64,000 bases of DNA, from NCBI GenBank assembly GCA_964016885.1, contig OZ024740.1, positions 272,676,001-272,740,000 on the forward strand. The letters are read 5' to 3'. How positions within the stretch are numbered: the first letter of the stretch is position 1; each line of letters opens with the position of its first letter. Below are positions 2,172-36,299 of the stretch, piece after piece. This stretch comes from Eledone cirrhosa (taxonomy: Eukaryota). The position numbers were made by a program, and so were the translations under genes. The notes under the pieces were generated by a model that was given only the letters and a program-made list of their open reading frames with translations, ran no database searches and was not told where the DNA came from.

Positions 2172-2262
2172 CGTATCCGAGGACCACGCGATTTCAGAGT
2201 CAGGTTTGATCACCGCATCGATCGTGCCTCGAGCTAGTCACCCGAGAAACAATTGTAATATG
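2172..2262 (+). ncRNA. Type I hammerhead-like ribozyme, CCGAGGA core variant with long stem II insert (PLE remnant)
   Basis: cgtat-CCGAGGA-[~62 nt]-GAAAC-aatt-GTA-atatg. Stem I pairs (one G-U), stem III is the palindrome ACAATTGT. The element ends in (TA)n. Confidence 0.55.
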
Positions 2263-2752
2263 TTCAATAAATTCCTTTCGTCGCAACACTGATTCTCTTT
2301 TTTTTGTGATATATATATATATATATATATATATATATATATATATATATATATATACAAATAGTAATTCATAGTACAACTCATTATTAAATAATGAGTT
2401 TTACTATGAATTAACCGTTTTTTGTTTAATTTCATTCTTTCACTATTTGTATTTTTGACTCTGTATCCAATGAATTATATCGTTGAAAATTTTGTATTTT
2501 AAACTTTGCTTCACGACATCTACATACGGATTACATTGAGTTCTTTATACGGTTTAGACCCTACCATTAATTGGTGGATTTATCTGTGTGTGTATATATA
2601 TATATATATATATATATATATATATATATATATATATATATATATATATATATATATATATATATATATATATATATATATATATATAGTGGTAGAACAC
2701 TGGAAGGTAATATCCGTAGTGGTAGAGCACTCAGTCCATGGGACGAGTTAGG

Positions 2753-2899
2753 TAGAAGTGGTTACAAAACGGTTAGTTCACCATACCGAGAACAATTGTT
2801 TCACCTTAGCGGATCCTCAGCTCGTAATGAGCTGAGGATCCGCTAAGGTGAAACAATTGTTCTCGGTATGATGAAGTAACTGTTGTGTAACCACTTCTA
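2753..2899. mobile_element. Fold-back PLE remnant (inverted pseudo-LTR) in (TA)n
   Basis: ~70-bp imperfect inverted arms around a 5-nt loop at 2824-2828, an extra tail at 2689-2752, (TA)n on both sides, and a hammerhead in each arm. Confidence 0.75.
2829..2864 (+). ncRNA. Minimal type I hammerhead ribozyme (mirror copy on - strand 2787-2824)
   Basis: gag-CTGAGGA-t-cc-gctaa-gg-t-GAAAC-aatt-GTT-ctc. Stem I is gag/ctc and stem III is palindromic. Confidence 0.75.
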
Positions 2900-3511
2900 T
2901 ATATATATATATATATATATATATATATATATATATATATATATATGTGTGTGTGTGCGTGTATGTATGTATATTCACTCCGTATAACTTCCTGGTTCAT
3001 AGTATAATGTCTGGTCTGCAGTAAATATCTTTCAAATTTAACAAACGGTGGATTGTTCGTGCTAGCTATGAATATTGCATTGTTAAAACTCTATGAATTC
3101 CAATCCATTTTAGGAAAACTACAACTCTTCCAAGTAACATTTAATACAACTGACATCATATTTTCTTAACTAAGATGTTTTTTCACTATATTCTTTAACT
3201 GTGATTTATTTTGATATTTTGATAAGAGATATATATTTCCTGTTCTTTCCTGAGTGATTTGTATTGATATCTAATGACTCACATAGTCTAGGCTAACTGT
3301 TGGCAAATGGTTAAATAGAATAATTTGCTATCGGTGGTATATTACTATGGGAAGAAACAATTATGAGTGATTAAATGTCTTGGATTTTTAAGTTTTGGCT
3401 TATAACGGCTCTGCATCATCCTGTCATCGCATTGGGCTAAAGTATATTTATATAAATGAGAGTATATTTTACTCATTTACTTACTATTATATATGTATGT
3501 ATATAATAGTT

Positions 3512-3632
3512 ATTTCAAGCGTTAACCTAATATATTCCTTCCATATACTGTACCGATTGTGTTGTTATTTCTGTTTACCTTTTACATATATATATAAATA
3601 ACAGGAAGAGGGTCTTAACGTTTCGGACGCTA
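3512..3632. mobile_element. PLE 3'-end fragments of the family also at 19612-19652, 36555-36660 and 38968-39090
   Basis: Shared sequences tactgtaccgattgtgttgttatttctgtttacc and gtccgaaacgttaagaccctcttcctg. Confidence 0.6.
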
Positions 3633-4140
3633 CAAGAAGTGTAACTCAACAGGTTAAAATTAACTTCGTTTATTCATATTCACTGTTATACATATTTCGG
3701 TGATAGCCATTATTCAACACCTATGACCTCATCAGACAGCTAGAACTTGAACAGAAAAAACAGAAAAACATAATGATGGAACAAAGTTTATCCTCGTTAT
3801 TTCGATCCTTTGATATGCCCTGTCCCGAAGTATAGTGTTGTTTTCTCAAAGAACTGGTAACCAACCAACATATACTCAAATATATATATATATATATATA
3901 TATATATATATATACGGGGTAACAAATAATAGTTATATCCAGTCCCCTTAGGTGTAGTCCAGTTATGGTACTCCGGGTAGTGGATGATATCAACGTTAGG
4001 CTTGGTTTGACTCAACAAGGCGTATTCATAGTGATGTTGCGAGTATGCTGTAATTCCTATGTTGTAAACACTTGGAGTAATAATAAACCAGGAAAGAAGA
4101 TTGACATGGTTTGCAATACAAAATAGGTTTTTAATCTCAT

Positions 4141-34000: not shown

Positions 34001-34522
34001 AACTTCCAGAGGTCCCTAGCCTGGCAGTGTTACCGGGGGGCTCTGCCCGTTCGAGAAAAGCTCTACAGACACGGGCGCCCGGGCAGGGATCCCGCGAAAA
34101 AGATCTGTCCCAGATGCGTGCGCGACGAGGAAACCGTTGCGCATGCACTGGTACACTGCCCGGGCGTTGCCGATCTGTGGGGCTACGTCGAACGACTGCT
34201 GTCGCGTGTGGCGCCGATTCGATTAACCGCCGAGTCTGTGGTGAACATCAAGCCGCCTCCTCCCTTCAGAAATGAAGCAGAGGCGGTCTTTCTGTGCGTA
34301 ATAGCCATGATGAAAGAGGTTGTGTGGTGGACGCGCCTGAAAGGTCTGAGGTCGGGTGACTTTCTCTCCGGCCATCACCTGGTTTACTTCTTCCGATACC
34401 ACTTCGGAAGAAGAATCAGGATGGAGAGAGAAGTGCTTGGTCCCAGACAGTTTTATGAAAGGTGGGTGAAAGAAGCGAGAATGGCCCGTGTAAATGGGCC
34501 TTCTCTCTACATTGTTCTGTAG
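31092..34522 (+). CDS. LINE ORF2 (APE endonuclease, reverse transcriptase, C-terminal Cys/His motif); one frameshift in a G10 run at 31281-31290
   Basis: Motifs LNARG, GDWN, SYLDRF, SDH, KSPGLDG, NFRPITLLN, DQSKAFD, RQGCPLS, YADD and CPRC..ETVAHALVHC. Confidence 0.92.
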
Positions 34523-35493
34523 GTGAAGAAGTGAAGAGGAAAGGGGGAGCGCCTCCTCTCTGGGCTTCCCCCGCGAAAAGAGTTGCACACTTTTCGGAGG
34601 TATGTGCAATCCCCAACACGCCCCCTCCCTTTTGAGGACTTTTTATTGTTATATTATTATTGTTATTCCTTTTTTCTTTACTCGATTTATGTAAACTCCC
34701 CCACTGTGTAAATGTCCCCTTCTTTTGTGCCCTCGTGGCAAATAAATAGAAATTTATCTATCTATCTATTTATTTATCTTTTTTAATCTAAGTATCTATC
34801 TACCTATCTAATAGCCATCCCATTCGTCTGTCTATCTGTCTGTATATCTATCATTCTCTCTATCTATCTATCTATCTATCTATCTATCTATCTATCTATC
34901 TATCTATCTATCTATCTATCTATCTATCTATCTATCTATCTATCTATCTACCTATCTATCTAGTTGTCTATCTATCTATCTATCTATCTATCTGCCATTA
35001 TGATTTTCATTTTTCTTTACGTCTTTTCATTATTTCCTTCCCTTCTTTCTTGTTTCTTTAGTTTTTAGGTTGTTTCCCCACTTAACACCAATAAACTTGT
35101 AAAGCAAAAGAAATACGAACAGTCATACACATATACACACATGTACGTACACACACATATACATAAATGCATGCATAAATGCATTAACACACAACTACGT
35201 GAGCGCACACACACACACACACACACACACACACACACACACACATATATATATATGTAAGTATTGAAAAACGAAAATAAAGAGTCGAAGATAGGTTCTT
35301 AAATAGTTCATTGTTTTACGATCGTTTCAGTGGGTTGATTGATTATAGTAAATTGATGGAACCTATCACAAAAGCTATAGCTCTCACGTCATGACTCGTT
35401 GAATTCATTTCTTCACGACTGCACGGGTTTCTAACAACGTTATTGGCCCTGCCAAAAACAGGTGGATAACAGTATATATATACATCTATCTAT

Positions 35494-35800
35494 CTAAGGC
35501 AGGTAAAATTCCCGAGATCCATGGACGAGTTCTCTGCAGCGGTCTCTGTCCCTCATTATCGCTGCCATGTCCTGCGTCTCCATCAGACCAGTGCCTGTCC
35601 TTAGGGCATCAACATATGTTAACCTCGGTCTTTCTTCTCCAGTGTGTTCATGCAGGGGCTCTCACAGGAGCACTGAGTGCAGTGTCAACTCTGGATGTCG
35701 GTGAGCATGTTCAGCTAGCCTCAGTCTCCTCTGTGTCACTTTTGATGTAGTGGAGTCTTTGCGGCTGTACGGGTCTGAGACTTGGACACTGACCATGAAA
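35494..35800 (-). mobile_element. RTE 3' fragment (same family as 20929-21667) with inverted 5' segment
   Basis: 35494-35745 is the reverse complement of ~21416-21667. 35746-35800 matches the upstream 21244-21298 (LYGSETWTLT) in the opposite orientation. Confidence 0.85.
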
Positions 35801-35934
35801 TATATATATAATAGTATAAATATAGTTTTATAAATATAGTTTCCATTTATTTAATATCATTGTATATATATATATATATATATATATATATATATATATA
35901 TATATATATATATATATATATATATATATATATT

Positions 35935-36299
35935 ATACGTGTGTATAATGGTAGCTATGGTGCTTCCATAGGCGGTATGCCAAAATTAGCATTCAATATT
36001 CATACAGAGCAGAGTGTGAATAGTATAAAAAAACGAAAAATCAGTGATGCATCTGGACTCAGTTTATTGCGTATTACAATTGTTTCGCCGGCAGGTAGCT
36101 CGAGACATGATCACTGTATGGATCTCAGTGAGAAAATTTGCTCCGAAAGAATTGCATGTGTCCGAAGGAACCTGCAGCCGTAGAATCAGCCAGATCCATA
36201 CAGTGATCATGTCTCGAGTTACCTGCCGGCGAAACAATTGTAACATGCAATAAACTGAGTCCAGATGCATCACTGATTTTTCGTTTTGTTTTATACTAT
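35935..36299. mobile_element. Fold-back PLE remnant (family of 2172 and 13734) with CCGA-type hammerhead at + 36157-36247
   Basis: Arms at 36020-36125 and 36192-36299. tgtgt-CCGAAGGA...ctgccggc-GAAAC-aatt-GTA-acatg. (TA)n flanks. Confidence 0.7.

Follow-up and report, generated by a model that had tools for sequence, protein, structure and literature searches.

Does a hammerhead-like motif with CCGA in place of CUGA and a long insertion in stem II represent a distinct ribozyme, or a familiar one whose core has drifted? The question is raised by a 64,000-nt stretch of the 3.0 Gb, microsatellite-rich genome of Eledone cirrhosa (assembly GCA_964016885.1, contig OZ024740.1, positions 272,676,001 to 272,740,000 of the forward strand), hereafter the window. 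A first-pass annotation of the window described four CCGA copies (2172+, 4141-, 13734- and 36157+; signs give the strand) and two degenerate relatives (7601- and 16156+), and read them as a hammerhead variant with a U4C core, whose stem II insert might act as a stabilising domain or bind protein. We assign these copies to A (2172+), B (4141-), C (13734-), D (36157+), E (7601-) and F (16156+). In our judgement they are probably type I hammerheads of Penelope-like elements (PLEs) that likely cleave slowly and only as dimers; U4C is probably tolerated drift fixed about six times, and the distal motif of stem II is likely a binding site, older than U4C, for the element's reverse transcriptase (RT)-endonuclease. 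Dimer cleavage, the near-neutrality of U4C and protein binding are the parts of this account that we infer from sequence.

When a CCGW core, a stem II of 50-90 nt, a 4-bp stem I and a palindromic stem III were all required, four matches were obtained in the window and none in any of 200 dinucleotide shuffles. CCGA cores were located at 2177 (+, CCGAGGA), 4244 (-, CCGAAGA), 13817 (-, CCGAGGA) and 36162 (+). All four copies lie where they were first placed, but the 36157+ core has one extra base (CCGAAGGA, 8 nt) and therefore does not fit CCGANGA. The stem I arms are complementary in all four, as described, and the common stem III, ACAATTGT, was found in each. The insert with GATC-loop-GATC is present in 2172+, 13734-, 36157+, 7601- and 16156+, except that in 36157+ it starts with AGAATC and not AGAGTC. 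The two supposed degenerate relatives are indeed decayed, but they are members of separate subfamilies, E and F, which have stem III ACGCGCGT and a GUC site. The 81-nt stem II of 4141- is unrelated to the insert and has only a GATC/GATC helix in common with it; our model R1 scored this copy at 20.4 bits, versus 71.6-85.7 bits for the five insert copies.

The motifs lie at predicted 3' ends of Hydra-clade Penelope-like elements

The motifs are predicted pseudo-long terminal repeat (pseudo-LTR) hammerheads at the 3' ends of high-copy PLEs of the Hydra clade. At one locus (L171), two family B copies 3,672 bp apart flank open reading frame (ORF) pieces encoding an RT (YRDD) and a GIY-YIG endonuclease. 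These pieces carry RWK, a CxCX5C linker, CxxC, and CxH in the endonuclease, all of them marks of the Hydra clade (PMC8557442), and the elements occupy (TA)n targets. The L171 copy is broken at the site of the DKT motif of the RT. CxCX5C-type endonuclease remnants were also found upstream of copies of C (L179, L187), A (L184) and D (L176), the one in L179 being a Hydra-type endonuclease about 1.0-1.5 kb upstream of the C copy; none was found upstream of F copies in five F loci. Our first guess, the Neptune clade, was dropped after comparison with the Hydra definition in PMC8557442.

The copies are 5'-truncated and often paired with an inverted truncated partner. They end at (TA)n 55-63 nt beyond the predicted cut or tail into the 5' leader. 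A non-LTR retrozyme, made of non-coding tandem monomers a few hundred nucleotides long, was rejected as the source, the copies being dispersed truncated ends of coding elements; no tandem array of hammerhead copies was found in the window. The same genome contains numerous further families of this kind, which have CUGA cores and stem II arms between 8 and 115 nt long. In the insert lineage an AATAAA is nearly invariant 6-8 nt past the predicted cut, and in A, C and D a U-rich tract comes next. From this arrangement, cleavage and polyadenylation could compete.

Stem II is elongated and its distal motif is nearly invariant

Stems I, II and III covary around the core in an alignment of 23 subfamily representatives, with the open end at stem I as in type I hammerheads. 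In total, 86% of cells were paired and 14 of 30 pairs showed two-sided changes. The covariation score was reached by none of 500 shuffles and slid controls dropped to 30-37%, the relatedness of the rows remaining in both kinds of control. RNAalifold recovered the same single long hairpin, including the distal motif unaided. What had been taken for an inserted domain is an elongated, irregular stem II and not a branched domain. Covariation, which the first-pass annotation named as one check on its idea, was present in stem I, proximal stem II and loop III but weak in the distal insert. It was concentrated in stem I and proximal stem II, where 8 of 9 pairs of the latter had two-sided changes. 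In the no-bulge register of the distal motif, by comparison, two-sided changes affected 3 of 15 pairs (5 cells), and 82 of 500 shuffles scored as high. The 10.1-11.1 pair was mismatched in 13 of the 23 rows.

The distal motif is conserved in its letters. On a 37-row tree (below), about 17 of its positions had no non-singleton change, like the core, against about 5-14 for flank columns. Such near-invariance indicates that the motif is constrained in sequence, a pattern more in keeping with a recognition surface than with a simple helix. Protein binding, one of the two functions first suggested for the insert, is the reading that we prefer. A column-pair scan of the 37 rows, to which non-canonical contacts are invisible, gave no covarying extra helix, pseudoknot or contact to stem I or elsewhere that could stand for the loop I-loop II tertiary interaction of fast natural hammerheads.

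Within the catalytic core, C3, G8, A9, G12, A13, A14, A15.1 and U16.1 had no non-singleton change on the tree. G5, which was masked there, is G in 22 of the 23 alignment rows, and the cleavage-site triplets are GUA and GUC. Stem III is very short and its loop palindromic, as in dimer-type hammerheads, with the central two bases of loop III complementary in all 23 rows (AU 11, UA 7, CG 5). These bases cannot pair within one strand, which points to a strand-swapped dimer, an arrangement known for PLE hammerheads (PMC4209133, PMC6765202); the predicted self-duplex energies are -5.8 to -13.3 kcal/mol. For A-D, the predicted folds compatible with a hammerhead are 0.1-5.8 kcal/mol less stable than the minimum-energy fold, and for F and G1 the gap is as large as about 12 kcal/mol. 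In the 2172+ copy, two decay changes weaken stem II and the difference is 5.8 kcal/mol, compared with 2.3 kcal/mol in a cleaner copy.

Variant cores are fixed in amplified subfamilies

First-look searches returned 1,955 genomic candidates for A, 1,582 for B, 2,565 for C, 1,868 for D and 2,409 for F. For each family, 40 candidates were scored and 30 loci fetched. The A, B and D queries were free of the core; those of C and F contained it, so that their core tallies lean to the query. Among 28 full-length A matches, 14 cores started with CCGA, 1 with CUGA and 5 had other single changes, while 8 could not be parsed. CCGAGGA was the core in 24 of 32 full-length C matches, CCGAAGGA in 22 of 33 for D, and CCGTCGA in 27 of 36 for F, a young family. 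Family B had CCGA in 33 of 37 full-length matches. A core-blind pattern for a young B subfamily gave 236 matches, of which the first 100 listed comprised 96 CCGA, 3 CTGA and 1 CCAA. With CCGA in the majority within each of A, B, C and D, it is not the decay of single copies, and the first-pass annotation was right to call it a trait. CpG decay was rejected as the source of CCGA, since it leads from CCGA to CTGA or CCAA, both of them rare copy changes.

Overall, U4C characterises the cores of A, B, C and E, U4C with A6U those of D2 and F, and an 8-nt core that of D. None of A, B, C, D, D2, E and F fits the strict CUGANGA box, and the warning that a strict search would miss such motifs was borne out for Rfam too. 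No hammerhead model was among the 150 listed of 227 Rfam matches in the window, or among 47 matches in 11 short loci, six of which have CUGA cores; the top matches were microsatellite and inverted-repeat artefacts. Model R1, in turn, was run on samples spaced evenly over the genome and totalling 800 kb, where 12 matches exceeded 44 bits. Other searches were less telling. The insert pattern had no exact match in metagenome and viral contigs, where animal repeats are few, so that its range is little informed by this result. Three runs of contigs, examined for RNA evidence, yielded nothing beyond copy variation in X1 and, for two other organisms, 1-3 partial contigs, which was not enough to use. 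A pattern of CCGA with a short stem II had 651 matches versus 952 for its reversed control and was uninformative overall.

U4C arose repeatedly and does not track the insert

With positions 4-7 left free, the insert pattern had 8,552 genomic matches versus 1 for a reversed control; the listed matches come from the start of contig C1, and the 8-nt core of D falls outside the pattern. Read by eye, the first 100 listed copies were 52 U4, 47 C4 and 1 G4, and U6 occurred in 18 of them, every one on C4. The proposal that U4C is one variant family tied to the insert finds no support in these counts, and family B, in which U4C occurs without the insert motif, breaks the coupling from the other side. 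The annotation had held that a CUGA family consensus would speak against it. About half of the listed insert copies are CUGA, yet within A, C and D most cores carry CCGA.

The tree was built from 37 hand-picked intact representatives of about 200 copies (166 columns, positions 4-7 masked) and rooted on H1, by choice. On it, C4 requires five changes, at least four of them forced by well-supported branches, and a single C4 clade, as the idea of one U4C family would have it, was rejected (p-AU 3.4e-05). The outgroup and the deep branches are U4, and the C4 changes are accordingly read as gains, in A, A3, C/D, E and F. Intermediates form a series from C2 and C1.5 (CUGA) through C (CCGA) to D3, then D2 (CCGU), D4 and D (8-nt core). 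In family B (1,091 matches), about 23 of the 25 copies listed for an older subfamily have U4, as read by eye, and younger subfamilies have C4. These results indicate that U4C arose about five times on the tree of the insert lineage, plus once in the lineage of 4141-, and that the insert predates U4C and does not track it.

Across ten internal branches of the master lineages, T>C was the commonest of the polarised changes (14 of 48), and T>C plus A>G amounted to 22 versus 9 for C>T plus G>A. Among single copies of A, C, D and F the opposite held, with C>T and G>A the leading changes. Reverse transcriptases often make U-to-C errors. Most simply read, the change most frequent on the master lineages repeatedly fixes at the one core position that tolerates it.

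CCGA was also seen on other stem II arms, of 38 nt in L095:5220 (-), 20 nt in L159:493 (-) and 53 nt in L027:778 (+), which suggests further origins of U4C beyond the two lineages studied. In D2 and F (L206:1738-1842 -, L071:1512-1615 -), A6U gives rise to a UCGA within the core that is complementary to the conserved UYGA of the distal motif; the two might pair in an alternative fold, or a short segment may have passed from one family to another.

Weighing the possible roles of cleavage and of the distal motif

In the account that we favour, a transcript through tandem pseudo-LTRs would unite two motifs, and stem III would form across both. Cleavage after GUA or GUC would be slow and perhaps protein-assisted, by analogy with a Poseidon PLE whose hammerhead cleaved only with the element's protein and whose insertion in vitro did not need cleavage (PMC11167929). 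Weak reliance on cleavage would let U4C drift in, A6U and the 8-nt core may ride along, and the invariant distal part of stem II would dock the element's own RT-endonuclease. Of 1,079 B copies, every one of the 100 listed continues past the predicted cut site, which means that the copied template was uncut or religated. No 5' truncations were piled at the cut site in these 100 copies, the pattern used skipping copies with T 37 nt upstream. D2 and F, with A6U, and D, with its 8-nt core, have been amplified even though little or no cleavage is predicted for them. This fits cleavage that is helpful but not required for each insertion.

Several points weigh against this account. The RT is tied to family B ends only, A, C and D having endonuclease remnants only, and the putative Hydra assignment comes from motifs read by eye and not from phylogeny, because Pfam returned no match for the two L171 ORF pieces. 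The tree draws on 166 columns and on single representative copies with their decay changes, and recombination of short segments could give the appearance of a repeated origin of U4C. Predicted monomer folds are not unusually stable (z +0.3 to -2.5). A6U as the majority state in two amplified subfamilies, together with the extra core base of D, sits badly with strong selection for catalysis. In another hammerhead, single and double changes of the CUGA region gave low activity except for a C3-G8 swap (PMC9901934), and both A6C and an insertion following A6 gave slow cleavage or low activity (PMC3088659). Finally, the protein-binding region reported in PMC11167929 is the first 172 nt of the ORF, which takes in the stem II of that element but was not mapped to it.

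A less likely version of the docking idea has stem II as a protein-docking arm whose bound RT-endonuclease rescues or replaces catalysis, so that cores with U4C plus A6U or an extra base would work within a ribonucleoprotein (RNP) or would have become a structural scaffold. We also think it rather unlikely that catalysis is simply being lost, with the fold, the dimer palindrome and the distal motif kept as an RNA scaffold for RNP assembly or template pairing, and with U4C, A6U and the core insertion as steps of relaxed constraint. The fixation of A6U in D2 and F and of the 8-nt core in D, each amplified, with the candidate numbers given above for D and F, would agree with such a loss, as would the low activity of A6C and of insertion after A6 (PMC3088659), the independence of insertion in vitro from cleavage (PMC11167929) and the read-through of the site in every listed B copy. 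However, no change has become fixed on the tree at G8, G12, the remaining core bases or the U16.1-H17 site, position 4 changes solely to C, the one substitution known to remain active, and the loop III palindrome is retained.

The model of the first-pass annotation, a tertiary-stabilising insert that offsets a weak U4C core and defines a distinct hammerhead variant, now appears quite improbable. Both features do occur together in five of the six window copies, the roughly 17 insert positions are as invariant as the core, outer contacts have been suggested to offset variant cores (PMC3088659), and repeated fixation of U4C in lineages with a long stem II would be permitted if a stabiliser pre-existed. 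But about half of the listed insert copies and the deepest branches are U4, C4 occurs without the motif in family B, L095, L159 and L027, and the invariant patch begins 12 nt from the core, with no covarying contact to stem I or elsewhere. That the distal motif is kept for a DNA-level (palindromic target or cruciform) or 3'-end-processing reason and not as folded RNA is very improbable: its wealth of short palindromes, its low covariation and the nearby AATAAA would agree, but it sits atop a covarying helix of constant length, is predicted by RNAalifold unaided, and has G-U substitutions that preserve sense-strand pairs (42-70: AU 14, GU 6).

Positions of the motifs and other features of the window

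The subfamily A motif, a predicted type I hammerhead with a 62-nt stem II, spans 2170..2264 (+), with core CCGAGGA at 2177-2183, GAAA at 2246-2249, a palindromic stem III and a predicted cut after GUA at 2257. Its distal stem II motif (AGAGUC ... GAUC-loop-GAUC ... CGAGCU) lies at 2196..2235 (+). The surrounding 5'-truncated PLE 3' end, or pseudo-LTR, runs over 2147..2312 (+), an extent set by comparison with other loci; it has AATAAA at 2266-2271 and stops at (TA)n about 55 nt beyond the predicted cut. The family B type I motif, with its 81-nt stem II, occupies 4141..4248 (-), with core CCGAAGA at 4244-4238, GAAA at 4156-4153 and a predicted cut after GUC at 4145. It belongs to a feature at 3880..4256 (-), made up of a pseudo-LTR end (to about 4083) and an extension into the element's 5' leader (to about 3880). 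The subfamily C type I motif, with a 61-nt stem II, lies at 13734..13821 (-), with core CCGAGGA at 13817-13811, the distal motif at 13798-13760 and a predicted cut after GUA at 13738, within a 5'-truncated pseudo-LTR at 13675..13853 (-) bounded by (TA)n runs.

The subfamily D hammerhead motif spans 36153..36251 (+), with its 8-nt core at 36162-36169, distal motif at 36182-36220 and a predicted cut after GUA at 36242. A second subfamily D end, inverted, 5'-truncated and without the core, lies at about 36020-36125 (-), the usual inverted arrangement of PLEs. The decayed E copy with the distal motif is at 7592..7695 (-); its subfamily has core CCGACGA, stem III ACGCGCGU and a GUC site. The F copy, also with the distal motif and stem III ACGCGCGU, is at 16146..16249 (+); the family core is CCGUCGA (U4C plus A6U), to which the window copy adds C3G at 16160 (+).

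Other hammerhead-like motifs were observed nearby. Two CUGA hammerheads with an 11-nt stem II, inverted head to head at 2760-2890 (cores at 2820 - and 2832 +), form the inverted 5' structure of another Penelope-like family. Further CUGA motifs, at 3735-, 4576-, 7216-, 27341-, 28002-, 38645+ and 39084-, vary in stem II length and mostly have a palindromic stem III, and several recur elsewhere as families. A repeat family with UUGAUAA ... GAAA-CUGUACAG-UC, at 13993-, 14587- and 43197- in the window and in L001 and L042, looks like a putative U3-A8 core-variant hammerhead with a longer palindromic stem III. At 4777-4968, near the motif at 4576-, lies a GIY-YIG endonuclease remnant resembling the family B protein. 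A long RT-like coding region at about 29300-34200 resembles a non-LTR retrotransposon and has similar ORFs in L187, and an inverted repeat pair of 464 nt (98% complementary, 862 nt apart) spans 44808-46597. Outside the window, a homeobox gene exon, which we take to be Otx-like from its motif, lies near a subfamily C copy in L022 (- strand ORF 119-647, oriented coordinates).

Relation to known hammerheads and significance

The hammerheads of Hydra-clade elements in File S2 of Craig et al. 2021 (PMC8557442) resemble those described here in their 3'-end position on an element with a C-terminal GIY-YIG domain, CxCX5C linker and (TA)n insertion. The type I topology, short near-palindromic stem III, GUA/GUU/GUC site and frequent 10.1-11.1 mismatch are also alike. 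In contrast, all 26 Hydra rows of that file have CUGA and a stem II plus loop of at most about 24 nt, whereas the Eledone copies have a 60-81-nt stem II, an invariant distal motif, and CCGA, CCGU or 8-nt cores in many subfamilies. The minimal dimer-type PLE hammerheads of Cervera and de la Pena 2014 (PMC4209133) likewise occur in pseudo-LTRs in thousands of truncated copies, with a short stem I, a longer stem II, a palindromic 15.2-16.2 plus loop III, and core variants at the level of families. They differ in their 6-8-bp stem II and highly conserved G10.1-C11.1, and the core variant in the main text of that paper is U3-A8 and not U4C or A6U.

U4C itself has precedents active in vitro or in vivo. 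As a natural variant, with CCGA for CUGA as here, it keeps a viroid infectious (PMC3088659), and it is active in zeta virus ZV1 and betaviroid-like RNAs (bioRxiv 10.64898/2026.09.16.752053). The preprint's examples are type III hammerheads of RNA replicons, whereas ours are type I in DNA retroelements, where U4C has repeatedly become fixed, in some cases with A6U after it. PAc, a Poseidon element of Anolis (PMC11167929), also has a PLE hammerhead, and its RNA is reverse transcribed uncleaved, from a start 3' of the ribozyme. It belongs to another clade, and its ORF starts within stem II rather than several hundred nucleotides downstream as here. A retrozyme preprint (10.64898/2026.07.22.740005), in the part available, has no bearing on the core. 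Within the literature searched, a scope outside which Lunse et al. 2017, the supplements of PMC4209133, Repbase and Dfam fall, we found no earlier account, for PLEs, of such a motif in a long stem II, of recurrent U4C or of A6U. Thus U4C as an active natural variant and PLE hammerheads, including those of the Hydra clade, are already known; the long stem II motif, the recurrence of U4C, and the A6U or insertion cores in amplified families appear to be new.

Thousands of hammerheads with a 60-80-nt stem II escape Rfam and short-spacer descriptors, and their clearly delimited distal motif is a candidate site for binding by a PLE protein. This invariant motif and the stepwise erosion of the core in amplified subfamilies are what most deserves further work. 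PLE hammerheads are slow, although nearly all members of the canonical clades have them, and in the one in vitro system insertion did not require them (PMC11167929). In Eledone, sister subfamilies share a scaffold that is conserved apart from core positions 4 and 6, and they number hundreds to thousands of copies apiece, which makes activity directly comparable with transposition success and provides a natural series in which to ask whether PLEs need RNA self-cutting at all. If, as in the less likely version above, a protein docked on stem II rescues or replaces catalysis, this would be a ribozyme caught in the act of becoming an RNP module, with the steps kept as thousands of dated copies.

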